Assembly (NCBI GenBank): GCA_963792365.1 | Contig: CAWBVW010000001.1 | Location: forward strand, 359,312 to 423,311 | Source of the DNA: an uncultured bacterium | GTDB lineage: Bacteria; Actinomycetota; Acidimicrobiia; Spongiisociales; ZC4RG35 | DNA: 64,000 nucleotides | Direction: 5' to 3' | In this document: in pieces, positions 1,515-63,878 of the stretch | How positions within the stretch are numbered: position 1 is the stretch's first letter | How the letters are laid out: each line of letters opens with the position of its first letter | Notes under the pieces: generated by a model | Database searches by the model: none | Told to the model about the DNA's origin: nothing | Seen by the model: only the letters and a program-made list of their open reading frames with translations | Made by a program: the position numbers and the translations under genes

Positions 1515-3562
1515 GGCGCGGAGCGGGAGCCCAGATGTTGACCCCATTGCTGCTCGTGGGCGTGGTCCTGATGATGGTGGTGCCGATGCCACCAGTGATG
1601 CTCGACGTGATGCTGGCAGCGAACTTCACGCTGGCCATCCTTGCGCTCCTTGCCGCCATGCTGCTGAAGGATTCGCTCGAACTGTCGGTGTTCCCGTCGT
1701 TCCTTCTCGTCGCCACCCTCACACGGCTTGCACTCAACGTGTCGTCGACGCGGCTCATACTGCTCAACGGATACGCCGGAAAGGTGATCGACGCATTCGG
1801 AACCTTCGTCATCGGTGGATCCGTGGTGGTCGGCCTGGTCGTGTTCCTGATCCTGGTGATCATCCAATTCGTCGTCATCACGAATGGCGCCGGCCGGGTG
1901 GCTGAGGTCGCAGCTCGATTCACTCTCGACGCCATGCCCGGCAAGCAGATGGCGATCGACGCCGATCTCGGGTCGGGTCTGATCAACGAAGCCCAGGCGC
2001 GGGAGATGCGGGCCAAGATCGCCAAGGAGGCCGATTTCTACGGCGCCATGGACGGTGCGTCCAAGTTCGTCAAGGGTGACGCCATCGCCGGCGTCATCAT
2101 CACGTCGATCAACCTGATCGGTGGGATGGCGATCGGGCTCGGATCGGCCGGGCTGAGTTTTGGCGAAGCGGTCGACACGTACTCACGCCTCTCGGTCGGC
2201 GATGGCCTCGTCTCGCAGATCCCGGCGTTGCTGATCTCGATCGCCACCGGTCTTCTCGTGACCAGGGTCGGCTCGGACAACGCCATGGGTTCCGATCTCG
2301 CCCGTCAGGTGTTCGGAAACCCCGACGCCCTCAGGATCGGCTCCATCGTCGTAACCGGGATGGGCCTGTTGCCCGGGCTACCAAAGCTTCCCTTCTTCGG
2401 GATCGCTGCGCTGCTGTTCTTCCTCTCCACACGCGCCGGCACCAACCCCGACGACGAGATTCCTCTCGACGGCGAGCCCGAGATCCGCACCAGTCCCGAC
2501 GACCCCGAAGCTCTCATCGAACGGATGCGCCTCGAGCCCCTGGAGCTCCACCTCTCCCACGAAATCCTCGATCTGGTGGACCCCGAGCGCGGTGGCGACC
2601 TCATGGAACGCGTCAGATCGCTCCGCCGGCAGATCGCCGACGAGCTCGGAGTGGTCATCCCATTGCTGCGCGTGCGAGACGACGCCACGCTCCCCGAATC
2701 GGCCTACAACATCCTCCTGCGCGGGATCGAGGTCGGCTCCGGTGTCGCACCCCGCGACCAACTCCTGGCTCTTCCGATGGGCGACGGGTCGGACTTGCGG
2801 GCGATGGGCGGGTCACCGACCACTGAACCGGTCTTTGGACTGGAGGCGTTCTGGGTCCCGGACTCTGCCCGCAGCGCAGCCGCCGCCACCGGCGCCACCG
2901 TCGTCGATCGCTCATCGGCCGTGGTGACCCACCTCGCCGAGGTGGTGCGAACCAACGCCTCCCAGCTCCTGAGCCGGCAGGACGTGTCGATGCTGCTCGA
3001 GGGGCTTCGATATGACGAGCCCATCCTCGCCAACGAGGTCGGAACCGACCAGCTTCCGCTCCAGACCCTGCATGCGGTACTCCGGGCGCTCCTCGACGAA
3101 CGGGTGTCCATTCGTGACATCGGCCGGATCATCGAGGCCGTGGCGTCCAAGGCGACCGAAACGCGGTCGGTCGAGGCGCTCGTGGCTGCGGCGAGGGTGT
3201 CCCTGGGATCGGCCATCGTCGGCAAGATCGCACCGGGGGGCCGCCTCAAGCTCATCACGCTCGAACCCGCCCTCGAAGCTGCATATCACGAGGCAATCCG
3301 CGAAGTCGACGGGACATCGCATCTGGTGCTCGATCCGGGCAAGCTCGAACGCCTCAGAGCCGACACGACGGCCGCGTTGTCGGCGGTGTCCGGCGAGCCG
3401 TTGGCGCTGGTCTGCAGCCTGGCCCTGCGCAAGCCCCTCCACAGAACCCTCACATCACTCGGCGTGGACCTCCCCGTGGTGGCCTACCCCGAGCTTCCCG
3501 CGCACCTGGAACTGATCCCGATCGGAGTGATCGAACATGGCGAACCAACCCACGCTGTCTGA
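1511..3562 (+). CDS. flhA: Flagellar export apparatus protein FlhA
   Basis: 683 aa with an N-terminal multi-TM domain and the conserved FlhA stretch ...FTLDAMPGKQMAIDADL...KFVKGDAIAG..., plus a large cytoplasmic C-domain. Translationally coupled to flhB. Confidence 0.9.
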   Translation: MRRGAGAQMLTPLLLVGVVLMMVVPMPPVMLDVMLAANFTLAILALLAAMLLKDSLELSVFPSFLLVATLTRLALNVSSTRLILLNGYAGKVIDAFGTFVIGGSVVVGLVVFLILVIIQFVVITNGAGRVAEVAARFTLDAMPGKQMAIDADLGSGLINEAQAREMRAKIAKEADFYGAMDGASKFVKGDAIAGVIITSINLIGGMAIGLGSAGLSFGEAVDTYSRLSVGDGLVSQIPALLISIATGLLVTRVGSDNAMGSDLARQVFGNPDALRIGSIVVTGMGLLPGLPKLPFFGIAALLFFLSTRAGTNPDDEIPLDGEPEIRTSPDDPEALIERMRLEPLELHLSHEILDLVDPERGGDLMERVRSLRRQIADELGVVIPLLRVRDDATLPESAYNILLRGIEVGSGVAPRDQLLALPMGDGSDLRAMGGSPTTEPVFGLEAFWVPDSARSAAAATGATVVDRSSAVVTHLAEVVRTNASQLLSRQDVSMLLEGLRYDEPILANEVGTDQLPLQTLHAVLRALLDERVSIRDIGRIIEAVASKATETRSVEALVAAARVSLGSAIVGKIAPGGRLKLITLEPALEAAYHEAIREVDGTSHLVLDPGKLERLRADTTAALSAVSGEPLALVCSLALRKPLHRTLTSLGVDLPVVAYPELPAHLELIPIGVIEHGEPTHAV

Positions 3563-17958: not shown

Positions 17959-18010
17959 CCCCCGGACCGGTTTTCGCGCACAAAAGGTGCGTGAATACGC
18001 ACCTTTTGTG
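17959..18010. repeat. Perfect 24-bp inverted repeat with a 4-nt loop (GGTTTTCGCGCACAAAAGGTGCGT-gaat-ACGCACCTTTTGTGCGCGAAAACC)
   Basis: Read directly from the sequence. The right arm is the exact reverse complement of the left arm. Lies in the 110-bp gap between two minus-strand genes. Confidence 0.9.
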
Positions 18011-18030
18011 CGCGAAAACCCGTGTCTGGG

Positions 18031-49020: not shown

Positions 49021-50754
49021 TCAATGACGACGACCGAGCCATGACAGGAAGTCCTCGCCCGGCATGGTGTTCACCACCCGATCTTTGGGGGTCCATCCAC
49101 GTTGGGCGTTGAGAACGCCGTAACGCATCCTGCCCAGTTCGGAGGTGTGGTGGCTGTCGGTCGAGATCGCCAGGCTGACGCCGTGCGCAAGTGCCCGGCG
49201 GATCACGTCGGACGATGCGTCGAGACGTTCGAGCGCGCCGTTGACCTCTAGCGCAACCCCTGATGTCGCCAGGCCCTCGAGTACCGCTTCGAGGTCCAAC
49301 TCGATACCAGGCCGCCTCCCGATGTACCGACCCGTCAGGTGCCCGATGACGTCGACCGAGGGGTCCGCCATCGCCCTGAGGAGACGTTCGGTCTGACGTT
49401 CGGCAGGAAGATCGAAGTGCGAATGCACGGAGGCCACTGTGAAGTCGAACTCTCGACGGAAGTCCTCGTCGTAGTCCAGCCCGCCGTCGGCACCGATGTT
49501 CAACTCACAGCCGAAGAAGAGCTTGATGTCGGGCACGCTGTCCTGGACGCGCCGAATCGCGTCCCGGTGCTTCAGCATCTGCTCACGGGACGATCCGTTG
49601 ATCGCCAGATCCTCGCCGTGGTCCGTGATCGCGACGTACTCGTGGCCACGTTCCACGGCGGCCCGGACCATTTCCTCCAGGGAGGAACGGCCGTCACCGG
49701 AACGCGTCGTGTGATAGTGGAGGTCGCCTCGAATGTCATCGAGGGTCACGAGGTCGGGCAGCGTGCCGGACCCCGCGGCCTCGATCTCGCCGGTGGACTC
49801 CCGGAGCGGGGGCGGGATGAACTCGAGCCCCAGCGCGTCGTAGATGGCCTCTTCGGTCTCCGACGCAACGACGGACCCCGTCTCCTTGTCGTTCAGGCCG
49901 TACTCGTTGAGCAGCCAACCACGGTCGATCGCTCGCTGCCGAAGCGCAATGTTGTGGCTCTTGGACCCCGTGAAGTACAGAATCGCCGCCCCGAACTGGT
50001 CCGGTGTGACCACGCGCACGTCCACCTGCAGACCGTCACGAGTGACGATGGAGGTCTTCGTATCGCCATGTCCGATCACCTCGGAGGCCTGGGCGTGGCC
50101 CGCCACGAAGTCCATGACGGGGAGAGGGTCGGTCGATGCCACTGTGATGTCGACGTCGCCGATCGTCTCCGAGAACCGACGCAGGCTTCCGCAGTACTGG
50201 ACCGCCGTGACGCCTTTCAGGGCGCTCATCTCCGTCGACAGTCGCTCGGCCAGCGGCATCGCCTCAGAGATGGGTGTTCTGCGGTCCTTGCCGTGCAACC
50301 CCAGCCGCTCGATCGCCTTGCCGATCTTCTCCTCACTGGTTGCCCCCAGACCTGGAAGCCCCCTGAGTGTCTGGGAAGCTATCGCAGCGCGAAGGTCATC
50401 GAGGTTCTCCACACCGAGTTCACGTCGGATGAGCTTCAAGGTCTTCGGCCCGAGGCCCGGGATCTTCGAGAGCTCCACAAAGGCAGGCGGGTACTTTGTC
50501 CTGAGGTCTTCCAGCTTCTGTACCGACCCAGAGTCGACGAACTCACGGATCTTCTCGGCGATCGACTTGCCGACACCCTTCATCTTCACGAGCTCGGACA
50601 CCGACCTGACGGTGACATCGTCGGTCACACCTTCCAGGGCGTGATAGGCGTTCTCATAGGCCCGCACCTTGAAGCTCTGATTGCTCTCCTCATCGAGGAT
50701 CGTGAGCTTGGCGAGCTCGGACAGCATGTCGAGAACGTCACGGTTGGTGGGCAT
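49021..50754 (-). CDS. polX: DNA polymerase X family protein with a C-terminal PHP (3'-5' exonuclease/phosphoesterase) domain
   Basis: PolX HhH and palm segments (...VKMKGVGKSIAEKI..., GSLRRFSETIGDVDITV). PHP motif LHYHTTRSGDG...ITDHG. Start at ATG 50754 (MPTNRDVLDML...). Confidence 0.9.
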   Translation of the reverse strand: MPTNRDVLDMLSELAKLTILDEESNQSFKVRAYENAYHALEGVTDDVTVRSVSELVKMKGVGKSIAEKIREFVDSGSVQKLEDLRTKYPPAFVELSKIPGLGPKTLKLIRRELGVENLDDLRAAIASQTLRGLPGLGATSEEKIGKAIERLGLHGKDRRTPISEAMPLAERLSTEMSALKGVTAVQYCGSLRRFSETIGDVDITVASTDPLPVMDFVAGHAQASEVIGHGDTKTSIVTRDGLQVDVRVVTPDQFGAAILYFTGSKSHNIALRQRAIDRGWLLNEYGLNDKETGSVVASETEEAIYDALGLEFIPPPLRESTGEIEAAGSGTLPDLVTLDDIRGDLHYHTTRSGDGRSSLEEMVRAAVERGHEYVAITDHGEDLAINGSSREQMLKHRDAIRRVQDSVPDIKLFFGCELNIGADGGLDYDEDFRREFDFTVASVHSHFDLPAERQTERLLRAMADPSVDVIGHLTGRYIGRRPGIELDLEAVLEGLATSGVALEVNGALERLDASSDVIRRALAHGVSLAISTDSHHTSELGRMRYGVLNAQRGWTPKDRVVNTMPGEDFLSWLGRRH

Positions 50755-51796
50755 GAGGCGCAGGATACGCGTCAGTCGTCGGCCACCGGTCATAGGCTGC
50801 CGCTCGTCGGTCACCCGAGGTCGCGGGACCAAAACCCAACCCCCCGTTCGGCGTTGATGCCGGGGTCTGGGGTCGCGTCCCTAGACATCACTGGCCGTAC
50901 GCTGGACCGATGCCTTCATTGCACCGCCTCGGGTGGGTCTTGTTCATCGTCAGCTCGGCCCTCTTCACCTGGTCCGGATACCGGGCGCGGGACTGGATCG
51001 CGGTGGCGGGCAGCGTGGTGTTCGGCCTCGCATGCATCTTGTTCCTGCTTCCCGACCGGGAGTGATTCTCTTCACGCATTCCGAAGGTTGCCTTGACCCC
51101 GGCTTTAACGGAGCTCTCGTAGGTTGGAATCAAGCCCAGGCGTCAGGGACGGGTTCTTTTCTCTCTCCCTCCTCGCGTCCCGATGCCTGGACTCTCAAGT
51201 GGATGGTGCGGCGCCTCGGATCCTCCCCCGGGGCGTCGACTCCACCTCCTCCCCAGACCAACCGCGCCATGGTGCGACACGGGGTGCCTTCCCTCCATTG
51301 TCCCCATGGATGTGAAATCCCCCCTGCTTCGCCTCCGGCGAATCAGTCCGCCGGTCGCCTGCGGCGACCTGAGCGAGTTTGCTCCGCAAACTCGACCCGA
51401 CACCGCATGACCAGCAGGGCGCAATCTGCGCTCCACGTGTCAACGGTGAGGTGAGTCCAGCGAGGCAGCCAGGGGGTTTCGAAGTACACGTGTCGCACCA
51501 AGACGGACAGGACACCTTTTGAGGGACGCGGTCAGTGGACCGCGGTCAAATGCCTCTTTGATCTCGGCGCCCATCCAGATCACGGTGGTATCGCCCTCGT
51601 TGTGTCCCCCGTACAGGTGGGACTGGCTGCCGCAGGCAGCCAGGGGGGATTCCGTAATTGCCGTGTCGCCTCGAGACGCGACGGGACACTATCGGTAGCC
51701 GAGCTCCGATCGGTACCATGTTCTCATCGCATGACCACACGAAACCAACAGTCACCCGACAGACAGTCCTCACCGCCAGGATGGCGGGTGGAAGGT

Positions 51797-53755
51797 ATGC
51801 CCGAGGACCAACAGAAGAAGGATCAACCTACTGGTCGCGGGCGCTTCCCCACCCCGCCCGGGGCGAGGTGGCTCTGGATCGTTCTCGCCGGCCTGCTGGT
51901 GGTCAACATTCTCGTGTCGAACGCCCTGCTCCAGCCCGAAGAGCCGATCCGAATCTCATACACCGTGTTCGTCGAGCAGGTGAGGAACGGCAACGTGGAG
52001 TCGGTGACCTCCACCGATCAGACCATCACCGCCCGTCTGATCGAGGCGATCACCGATCCGAACGCCGAAGATGTCACGAGCTCTCGAATCGAGACCGAGC
52101 GCCCGTCCTTTGCCGAAGACGACCTTCTCTCGCTGCTCGAAGAACAGAACGTGGACGTCAACGCCGAAGATCCGGACGCGCCACTGCCCACGTGGCAACT
52201 CATCCTGTTCAATTTCGGACCGTGGTTGTTGATCGCCTGGTTCTTTTTCTACATCTACCGGCGCGCCGGGTCGGCCATGGGCGGGCTCGGCGGGCTGGGA
52301 CGCAGCAAGGCCAAACGCTATGAGGCGACGGAGCATCGGACCACCTTCGACGACGTCGCGGGGATCGAAGACGCCGAGGAAGAGCTGATCGAGATCGTCG
52401 ACTTCTTGAAGAACCCGAAGAAGTACACACAACTGGGCGGGAAGATCCCGAAAGGTGTGCTGCTGTCGGGACAGCCCGGTACCGGAAAGACCTTGCTCGC
52501 ACGGGCCGTTGCCGGGGAGGCCGATGTTCCGTTCTTCTCGATGTCGGCATCCGAGTTCATCGAGATGGTCGTTGGTGTGGGGGCCAGCCGGGTGAGGGAC
52601 CTGTTCAACCAGGCAAAACAGGTGGCCCCGGCCATCATCTTCATCGACGAGCTCGATGCGATCGGCCGCTCCCGAGGCGGCAGCATGAGTATGGGCGGAC
52701 ATGACGAGCGCGAGCAGACGCTCAACCAGATCCTCACCGAGATGGACGGGTTCACAGGCAACGAAGGCGTCATCGTCATCGCCGCCACCAACCGACCCGA
52801 GATTCTCGACTCGGCGCTCCTGCGTCCTGGACGATTCGACCGTCAGGTCCCGGTGAGCCCCCCCGATCAGAACGGACGGCGGGCGATTCTCGAGGTCCAT
52901 ACGCGCGAAGTGCCGCTGGGCCACGACGTCGACCTGAACGCCATCGCCTCCACGACGCCGGGAATGGTGGGCGCAGATCTCATGAACCTCGTCAACGAGG
53001 CAGCGCTGATGGCTGCCCGGCGCAACCACGCCCGAGTGATGCTGGGTGACTTCACGGACGCGCTCGAGAAGATCGTTCTCGGAACCGAACGCCGCATCAT
53101 GATGAGCCAGGAGGAGAAGGAGCGGACGGCGTTCCACGAGTCCGGTCACGCCCTCCTCGGCATGCTCCAAGAAGGTGCGGATCCGGTCCGGAAGATCTCC
53201 ATCGTTCCCAGGGGACGGGCCCTTGGCGTCACGCTCCAGTCTCCCGACGCCGACAAGTACTCATATCGAGTCGATTACCTGCGCGGCAAGATCATCGGCA
53301 TGCTCGGTGGCCGGGCCGCCGAAGAGGTCGTGTTCGGCAACGTCTCGACCGGGGCCGAGAACGACATGGTCCAGGCGACCACGCTGGCCCGCAACATGGT
53401 GGGCCGTTGGGGAATGTCAGACGCGATCGGGCCGGTGACCGTCTTCGATGATCGCACCGTGGACGCCTTCGGGCGCCCTCAGGTGTCGGAAGCGACCATG
53501 GAACTGGTCGACTCCGAGGTTCGCCGGATCATCGAGGAGTGCTACGTCGCGGCCGTCGAGCAACTCAATCAATATCGGGACAAACTCGACTCCCTCACCG
53601 AAGCGTTGCTCGTCAAAGAGACGCTCGAAGAGCAGGAGGCATACGAGGTGGCCGGTATCGCCCGCACCGTCAATCCCGATCGCCCGATTGCGGAGACGGT
53701 CGAGCCCCCGGTGGAAGACTTGCCGGTGGAGCCGGTTTCCGGGATGCCGTCGTAG
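51797..53755 (+). CDS. ftsH: ATP-dependent zinc metalloprotease FtsH (second paralog)
   Basis: TMs, Walker [32 protein letters not shown] zinc site. Start chosen at ATG 51797 (GGTGGAAGG SD-like). ATG 51731 or the track's 51602 are alternatives. Confidence 0.9.
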
Positions 53756-63816: not shown

Positions 63817-63841
63817 CTCTCGAGCGACCCAGGTATCGGTT

Positions 63842-63873
63842 GAAGTGGCCCCGCCTGCCGGCGGGGCCACTTC
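63842..63873. terminator. GC-rich hairpin (14-bp perfect stem GAAGTGGCCCCGCC/GGCGGGGCCACTTC, loop TGCC) between glnII and a convergent downstream gene. Likely a bidirectional intrinsic terminator.
   Basis: Read directly. 26 nt after the glnII stop. Followed by AGTTGTC, a weak U-tract, as is common in high-GC actinobacteria. Confidence 0.55.
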
Positions 63874-63878
63874 AGTTG

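Follow-up and report, generated by a model that had tools for sequence, protein, structure and literature searches.

The window that we analyzed is a 64-kb stretch of DNA (64,000 nt) from an uncultured Acidimicrobiia bacterium, and we located relatives of this organism among GTDB genomes. Two divergent genes frame the region of interest. polX (49021-50754, minus strand) encodes a family X DNA polymerase with a PHP domain, and ftsH (51731-53755, plus strand) encodes a protein with the FtsH_ext, AAA, and Peptidase_M41 domains of Pfam. (ftsH is a stress gene.) The features that were flagged in a first-pass annotation, which described a ~1-kb non-coding leader of ftsH, all fall in the spacer between these genes. 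Exact-product look-ups of ftsH gave no record for either of its potential starts (51731 or 51797). The window also encodes a first ftsH paralogue (20840-22621, minus strand), which is 45% identical to the second ftsH that we discuss here.

Judging by the alignment of orthologous loci, the true start codon of ftsH is shown to be ATG 51731, rather than 51797. The N-terminus MTTR...PP(G/A)WRVEGMP is common to the orthologous loci, with variation at third codon positions, and the sequence 5' of 51797 is conserved with codon periodicity, with ATGAC and GGTAnnnT invariant. Three relatives (L005, L009, and L011) have in-frame stops 1-5 codons 5' of the MTTR ATG. In another four (L018-L021), gene callers give a 646-aa FtsH, which corresponds to a start at 51731. 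The supposedly non-coding stretch thus includes the first 22 codons of ftsH as well as a 51-aa open reading frame (50910-51065). A conserved GARGG-N4-5-ATG lies inside ftsH at 51797, and this internal Shine-Dalgarno-ATG pair could be a second start.

Just upstream of the corrected start is a -10-like TANNNT box (TACCAT, 51714-51719, plus strand). The surrounding GGTAnnnT is invariant in 10/10 aligned loci, where it lies 9-14 nt 5' of the conserved ATG. We did not find a purine-rich Shine-Dalgarno sequence ahead of ATG 51731, either in the window or in the alignment of the conserved ATG. We propose that this -10-like box is part of a conserved promoter that drives ftsH. Because the box is just 11 nt before ATG 51731, the ftsH mRNA would have almost no leader, and we infer from the putative promoter and the predicted transcription start that it is near-leaderless. 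The flagged features, which were thought to be in a ~1-kb leader, instead lie upstream of both the start codon and the conserved -10-like box. A longer ftsH transcript, made by read-through from a promoter-like motif further upstream (described below), is possible.

The polX-ftsH spacer varies greatly in length. Counting from the start of polX to the downstream ATG (51797, or Met23 of FtsH), it is 151-176 nt in L004-L011, 303 nt in L003, 389 nt in L002, 755 nt in L001, and 1042 nt in the window. In the compact relatives, the start codons of polX and ftsH are only 82-113 nt apart. For scale, L017 is a near-clonal genome, with 651/652 identical residues in FtsH, and the FtsH proteins of L001 and L002 are 98% and 85% identical to that of the window. 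The series of lengths, from 151-176 to 303, 389, 755, and 1042 nt, implies growth by accretion. The ancestral spacer would have been a divergent promoter region of ~90 nt, to which later pieces were added stepwise.

Two of these pieces are near polX. The 51-aa open reading frame (50910-51065, plus strand; GC3 of 0.93) probably encodes a small membrane protein that is specific to this lineage: only the window, L017, and L001 have it, with 90% amino-acid identity in L001. Pfam has no match for it, and a Logan contig has a recorded product identical to it. (The gene call in L017 is for a frame that is antisense to it.) A 36-nt palindromic unit occurs once in the window, as a degenerate copy at 50855-50890. 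In L001, this unit forms a tandem array (3373-3505; period 36 and 3.7 copies according to TRF).

A third piece, at 51133-51252 on the plus strand, is a conserved two-hairpin RNA and a candidate sRNA, as judged from folding, covariance model (CM) matches, and covariation. Hairpin 1 (51136-51190) has a CU-rich apical loop at 51154-51173, and hairpin 2 (51201-51249) has the loop AUCCUCCC at 51220-51227. The pyrimidine-rich tract that had been noticed in the first pass is real (51154-51176), and it forms the apical loop in hairpin 1. The loops of the window's RNA carry CUCCCUCCUC and AUCCUCCC, which are CU-rich and resemble the anti-Shine-Dalgarno sequence, and the tail of the RNA ends in CACCUCCUCCCC.

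We examined eight orthologous loci for this RNA: the window (W), L001, L002, L003, L022, L024, L027, and L028. When each sequence was folded by itself, the conserved tract UCUCUCUCCCUCC was in an apical loop of 20-28 nt in 7/8 loci. The stem of hairpin 1 is 11-23 bp long and its arms differ in sequence between loci. The exception is L022, which folds differently, with the tract within a more complex structure. A second hairpin, with a CCUCC-type loop, is also present in most of the loci. The minimum free energy of 51133-51252 has a z-score of -3.2 on the plus strand versus -0.4 on the minus strand; taken together, our z-scores were -3.2 and -4.4 for the plus strand and -0.4 and -2.2 for the minus strand. 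Given these z-scores and the many G-U pairs, the plus strand is favored.

We built covariance models of the RNA. The first model (R1), whose seed was W, L001, and L017 only, detects the RNA in L002 (48 bits), L018 and L003 (33 and 28 bits), L028 (27 bits), and L024 (19 bits, hairpin 1 only). The second model (R2) also recovers L027, which was outside its seed. Matches to the two models reach up to 87 bits. L024 and L027 retain hairpin 1 only, and L022 was not detected by the models. R2 found nothing in the loci with FtsH identities of 78% or below, and it found no second copy in the window. Across the clade with FtsH identities of at least 81%, the RNA is syntenic with ftsH. Since the arms of hairpin 1 could not be aligned by sequence (MAFFT and RNAalifold), we used a CM-guided alignment to look for covariation. 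In the resulting alignment of seven sequences, whose fit was guided by the structure, pairing holds in 93.5% of cells, versus 37-50% if the partners are slid. Of the 34 pairs, 21 change on both sides; none of 500 shuffles reached this, with the caveat that a model-fitted alignment favors the structure somewhat.

Upstream of the RNA is a promoter-like motif, CTTGAs-N5-sYTTTA-N11-sGTAnnnT (51092-51125, plus strand), with TTGACC at 51093-51098 and TAGGTT at 51120-51125. The motif is kept in the same eight loci as the RNA. Its spacing of 21 nt is non-canonical, and the motif was not picked up by a simple sigma-70 scan. We also considered sigma-factor and operator consensus sequences (SigH/E/L, sigma-54, HAIR, and sigma-32; by eye only), and set them aside as the spacing did not fit. 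There is no U-rich terminator after hairpin 2. We propose that the RNA is an older element than the insertion that follows it, and that it would be transcribed independently, from a predicted start downstream of the motif. The CCUCC-type anti-Shine-Dalgarno sequences in its loops and tail would pair in trans with purine-rich ribosome-binding sites. By analogy, the RNA is most likely a trans-acting sRNA like 6C and cuckoo/CcsR, with putative mRNA targets. ftsH itself does not look like a target: the energies of duplexes between the CU-rich RNA and the 5' region of ftsH, as computed with duplexfold, were no better than those of shuffles. This result, and the missing Shine-Dalgarno sequence before 51731, also speak against the idea that the spacer sequesters the Shine-Dalgarno sequence or start of ftsH.

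Searches of RNA families support the first-pass annotation's view that no known family is present at the locus. When we compared the window to Rfam 15, only a tRNA elsewhere reached its gathering threshold. The best matches within 50600-52000 were to Scr3202 (23 bits, with a gathering threshold of 52) and CcsR1 (18 bits, with a gathering threshold of 65.3). In a scan of four relatives, these sub-threshold matches recurred in L001 only. ARAGORN reported one unrelated tRNA-Thr in the window.

Between the RNA and ftsH lies a strain-specific, non-coding insertion of ~435 nt (51254-51690, with edges that are uncertain by ±10 nt). A repeat unit is present in it three times, and it also has five short hairpins with perfect stems. 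L001 aligns with the window at 91-96% identity on both flanks, yet it lacks ~51254-51690. The insertion is also missing from L002 and from every other orthologous site that we compared. L017 does carry it, and since its sequence is identical to that of the window, it gives no covariation information. The insertion is thus polymorphic between close relatives: it is present in the window and L017 and absent from L001, L002, and others. We infer that it arrived once this lineage had separated from its closest distinct relative. At its junctions, we saw no target-site duplication relative to the empty site in L001, whose own junction has diverged. The right end of the insertion directly abuts the -35 region of ftsH on its upstream side, and the simple sigma-70 scan found no promoter-like site inside the insertion.

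Comparison with relatives therefore divides the features that had been flagged. The RNA at 51133-51252 is conserved and covarying, so the proposal of a small RNA holds up for the pyrimidine tract; the segment with the ~55-nt repeats is absent from L001 and L002, and for these repeats the proposal is not supported.

The repeats themselves are real. Copy A is internal and direct (51448-51515, plus strand; core 51463-51515), and copy B is at the right end of the insertion (51614-51689, plus strand; core 51634-51689). As first reported, these are two related copies: they are 77% identical over ~57 nt and have an exact 14-mer in common, AGGCAGCCAGGGGG. Their local alignment scores 54.5, versus 17.7±3.7 for shuffles, and 0/500 shuffles score as high. 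Both units start further 5' than was first noted (at ~51448 for A and ~51614 for B). Copies A and B are more diverged from each other (77% identity) than the flanks of the window are from L001 (91-96%), which implies that the duplication is older than its arrival at this site.

The count of two copies was too low, as a third, inverted copy had been missed. It forms the left terminal inverted repeat (51258-51349, minus strand) and includes the hairpin TTCGCC-TCC-GGCGAA as well as AATCCCCCCTG and GCGACACGG, with ~30 extra nt. The reverse complement of the left end (51245-51350) aligns to copy B with a score of 37.7, versus 19.0±3.7 for shuffles, and none of 500 shuffles reach it. Against copy A, its score is reached by 4/500 shuffles. 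The inverted copy has a 30-nt indel, and its core is only ~75% identical. Also, 51315-51325 is perfectly complementary to 51641-51651 (11 nt). From left to right, the insertion is composed of the inverted unit, a central hairpin cluster, copy A, a hairpin-bearing spacer, and copy B at the right edge. The terminal unit, at 60-90 nt, is a small hairpin, then CAGGGGGGATT, then CGTGTCGC...GACRGGACAC.

The insertion is also rich in hairpins. The hairpin that had been placed at ~51625-51643 is real, and it extends to 9 perfect base pairs (51623-51643, CTGGCTGCC-GCA-GGCAGCCAG); it is part of copy B. Enumeration of hairpins identified a central cluster at 51353-51431, with GGTCGCC-TGC-GGCGACC (51353-51369), CGAGTTTGC-TCC-GCAAACTCG (51374-51394), and GCGCA-ATC-TGCGC (51419-51431). 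The last of these is the second hairpin from the first pass, which we confirm. Another hairpin, CGCGGTC-AGTG-GACCGCG (51527-51544), lies between copies A and B. The 330 nt from 51320 to 51650 contain 4 perfect stems of 7 bp or more, compared to ~0.6 per kb across the window; by this enumeration, perfect hairpins are ~20-fold enriched in the insertion. The stretch from 51254 to 51730 folds with z-scores of -4.9 on the plus strand and -4.4 on the minus strand. Strong folding of both strands is expected from a palindromic architecture at the DNA level. Single copies of the repeat, folded alone, are no more stable than shuffles on the plus strand. We rejected REP/BIME-type palindromes, as none of the insertion's hairpins recurs elsewhere in the 64 kb.

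We searched for genes in the insertion and for further copies of it. Its six-frame translations had no match in Pfam or NCBIfam. Comparison to PHROG gave only two weak matches, to families of unknown function (E = 0.045 and 0.11), and neither is credible. We considered a coding remnant in an open minus-strand frame (51443-51688), but an exhaustive phmmer search gave three matches, all to repetitive low-complexity proteins. We judged these to be spurious because the scores were summed over 7-21 weak stretches. For the repeat unit, blastn and nhmmer found no further copy in the 64-kb window or in ~240 kb of related loci. Pattern scans that required exact motifs gave 2 matches in metagenomes, which is the chance level, and 0 matches and 1 chance match in IMG/VR. 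There was no copy of the repeat in plasmid and phage records (blastn). The insertion's similarities to L001, L002, L003, and L022 are short and at chance level. We also rejected local duplication of flanking DNA as its origin: only the alignment of copy A to copy B was significant, and there was no donor nearby.

Given this architecture, the insertion is probably a MITE-like non-autonomous element, or the remnant of one, with a putative history of mobility. A transposase that recognizes the repeated unit would move it in trans. The element, which is gene-free and has a third copy of the unit inside, would have landed just 5' of the -35 region of ftsH.

Other explanations are conceivable. If the whole stretch were a long structured 5' UTR of ftsH (a thermosensor, attenuator, or riboswitch), as the first-pass annotation proposed, then the repeats would be duplicated regulatory RNA modules. 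The segment does fold much better than shuffles, ftsH is a stress gene, and a promoter-like motif (51093-51125) is upstream of all of the features. But the repeat segment is missing from L001, despite its 98% identical FtsH, and from all of the others save L017, and the conserved -10-like box and start codon are both downstream of it. The 82-113 nt spacers of the compact orthologues have no room for a structured leader, and without a Shine-Dalgarno sequence ahead of 51731, there is nothing for a structure to sequester. Furthermore, both strands fold equally well, a lone repeat is no stabler than shuffles on the plus strand, and there is no Rfam match. We consider this explanation barely credible. 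The good folding (z-scores of about -4.5 to -4.9) could instead reflect a structured non-coding RNA within the insertion, or the insertion might encode a small orphan protein, such as a 47-aa open reading frame at 51440-51583 on the minus strand; there is a weak GC3-like signal of 0.78 over 51510-51690, where both minus and plus frames are open. This is highly improbable given that the insertion has neither an Rfam match nor a promoter-like site, that family scans found no protein homologue, that the phmmer matches of the minus frame were low-complexity artefacts, and that the gene caller placed no gene there in L017.

The location of the insertion, right next to the -35 region of ftsH, would also suit a new cis-regulatory DNA module. 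Under this explanation, the three 57-nt units would form an array of transcription factor sites with GTGTC/GACAC half-sites, which would bring ftsH under new control in this strain. There are 8 occurrences of GTGTC/GACAC in the 435 nt, versus 1.15 expected, a density unmatched by any other such segment of the 64 kb, and copies A and B contain GTGTC-N17/19-GACAC palindromes. However, 5/8 of these sites are simply due to the three copies of the repeat, the 57-nt units far exceed the length of an operator, no candidate regulator was identified, and the perfect triloop hairpins would be left unexplained. We view such an array as distinctly unlikely. Finally, the insertion might be inert filler that was taken up in a single event of illegitimate recombination or end-joining, or the immobile remnant of one end of a larger, since deleted element. 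In its favor, no target duplication was seen and no second copy was found in the collections that we searched, and the spacer gained other lineage-specific DNA as well (the small open reading frame, and the 36-nt tandem repeat in L001). On the other hand, random DNA would not be expected to have a significant inverted-repeat layout, full-length units at its ends, and intact perfect hairpins, and the donor sequence is not nearby. Inert filler is unlikely as well, and we prefer to view the insertion as a MITE-like element.

Putting the pieces together, we lean towards the view that the polX-ftsH spacer is a stepwise patchwork, comprising a MITE-like insertion and an sRNA gene on a ~90-nt ancestral promoter region, without a leader for ftsH. 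Besides correcting the annotation of ftsH to a start at 51731 and removing a false candidate for a riboregulator, this would illustrate intergenic accretion in uncultured Acidimicrobiia, in which successive lineage-specific insertions enlarged a divergent promoter spacer from ~90 nt to ~1 kb. It also amounts to a natural experiment: the insertion holds the sRNA gene and the ftsH promoter apart in this strain, and not in the relatives that lack it. To our knowledge, essentially no sRNAs have been described from the Acidimicrobiia. If the RNA is real, then chaperone-independent regulation by loops, of the 6C or cuckoo type, arose again in a deep actinobacterial lineage. A more ambitious joint reading, to which we give a little less than even credence, is that the RNA founds an undescribed family of Acidimicrobiia sRNAs whose long CU-rich loop and CCUCC loop would mimic the anti-Shine-Dalgarno sequence of 16S rRNA, as an actinobacterial counterpart to cuckoo/CcsR, and that it is perhaps co-regulated with the syntenic ftsH. 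The insertion would then be a new type of element with terminal inverted repeats that uncouples the RNA and ftsH in this strain.

Each part of the spacer can be compared to known systems. Actinobacterial mRNAs include a leaderless or short-leader class. The ftsH of the window resembles these in having a TANNNT box 9-14 nt 5' of the ATG and no Shine-Dalgarno sequence, but the distance from the box to the ATG is slightly longer than in strictly leaderless genes.

MITEs and other small non-autonomous repeats that are bounded by terminal inverted repeats are known from bacteria; examples are the Correia, ERIC, and RUP-type elements. Like these, the insertion is under 600 bp (~435 nt), has no open reading frame or transposase gene, is intergenic, and adjoins a promoter. 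It also has inverted repeats at both ends, folds back strongly, and is present or absent in close strains. It differs in that its terminal repeats are unusually long (60-90 nt), with a hairpin of their own in each, and in the third, internal copy. It also differs in that it shows no target-site duplication, is seen as one copy in the collections searched, and has no known cognate IS.

The two-hairpin RNA is closest in design to two families of sRNAs. Members of the actinobacterial 6C family bind their mRNA targets directly through C-rich loops and need no chaperone to do so (PMC6486639). The RNA in the window is from the same phylum as 6C (B11, RF01066) and is predicted to form stem-loops with C-rich loops. 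But it has no match to RF01066 even at E ≤ 10, its loops are mixed C/U instead of runs of C, and its genomic context differs.

The cuckoo/CcsR RNAs are built from two to four neighboring hairpins, in which the stems vary and the loops carry C/U-rich anti-Shine-Dalgarno motifs, and among 2,680 genomes they were confined to the alphaproteobacteria (PMC4615179). Like cuckoo/CcsR1-4 (RSs0680, RF02791), our RNA has two adjacent hairpins whose stems vary yet stay paired, and exact CCUCCUCCC is present both in the window's RNA, within its 3' tail, and in that of L003, within the loop of hairpin 2. In contrast, the covariance model for RF02791 gives only 18.2 and 20.6 bits, versus a gathering threshold of 65.3, and the loop of hairpin 1 is 20-28 nt here (UCUCUCUCCCUCC), instead of the short CCUCCUCCC of cuckoo. 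The host is an actinobacterium of the Acidimicrobiia, whereas the cuckoo family is alphaproteobacterial, and a single copy of the RNA is found beside ftsH, whereas cuckoo RNAs are clustered behind a DUF1127 gene. As judged from these comparisons, the RNA has an architecture like those of 6C and cuckoo/CcsR and is not a member of either family. The insertion is of an ordinary kind; the neighboring sRNA candidate is the more interesting object, as a new version of a known sRNA design.

The conserved RNA, a two-hairpin candidate sRNA at 51133-51252 (+) in the polX-ftsH spacer, has orthologues in two related polX-ftsH loci that contain hairpin 1 only (L024, 1319-1384, and L027, 1044-1120). At the expected site of hairpin 2, both loci have unrelated sequence. 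Because hairpin 1 occurs alone in these loci, the family may have a modular build in which members carry one or two hairpins.

Upstream of the conserved RNA, in the window (51092-51125) and in the orthologues, there is a conserved motif, CTTGAs-N5-sYTTTA-N11-sGTAnnnT. The distance from TTGAnn to TAnnnT is fixed at 21 nt. This spacing is at odds with a standard sigma-70 type promoter.

Another conserved motif, GARGG-N4-5-ATG, lies within ftsH at Met23 (51788-51799). Judging from the sequence, it looks like a Shine-Dalgarno sequence followed by a start codon, which makes it conceivable that there are two isoforms of FtsH: a long form whose translation would be near-leaderless and a short form that would be driven by the Shine-Dalgarno sequence. 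Alternatively, the motif may be a mere by-product of the conserved E-G-M codons at this site.

The spacer also contains a 51-amino-acid ORF (50910-51065), which has very high GC3 and encodes a hydrophobic sequence with two segments. We found it only in the window, in the near-clonal genome (L017), and in L001, a relative whose FtsH is 98% identical. In L017, the gene caller selected a 49-amino-acid ORF on the opposite strand instead; the two ORFs have their wobble positions in common.

Elsewhere in the window, hairpin enumeration identified a 24-bp perfect stem with a 4-nt loop at 17969-18020 (GGTTTTCGCGCACAAAAGGTGCGT-gaat-ACGCACCTTTTGTGCGCGAAAACC), which is the longest hairpin in the window by a wide margin. 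It lies in a short gap with long candidate ORFs on either side. Close to the end of the window (63841-63874) is a 15-bp perfect hairpin, TGAAGTGGCCCCGCC-tgcc-GGCGGGGCCACTTCA.

Finally, a palindromic 36-nt unit, CCGCGGGGGTCTGGGGGTCGCCCCCAGATGTCGAAA, scores below threshold against Guanidine-II on the minus strand (26.4 bits, versus a gathering score of 32). L001 has 3.7 tandem copies of the unit (3373-3505), while the window has just one degenerate copy (50855-50890), so the unit behaves as a VNTR-like polymorphism.
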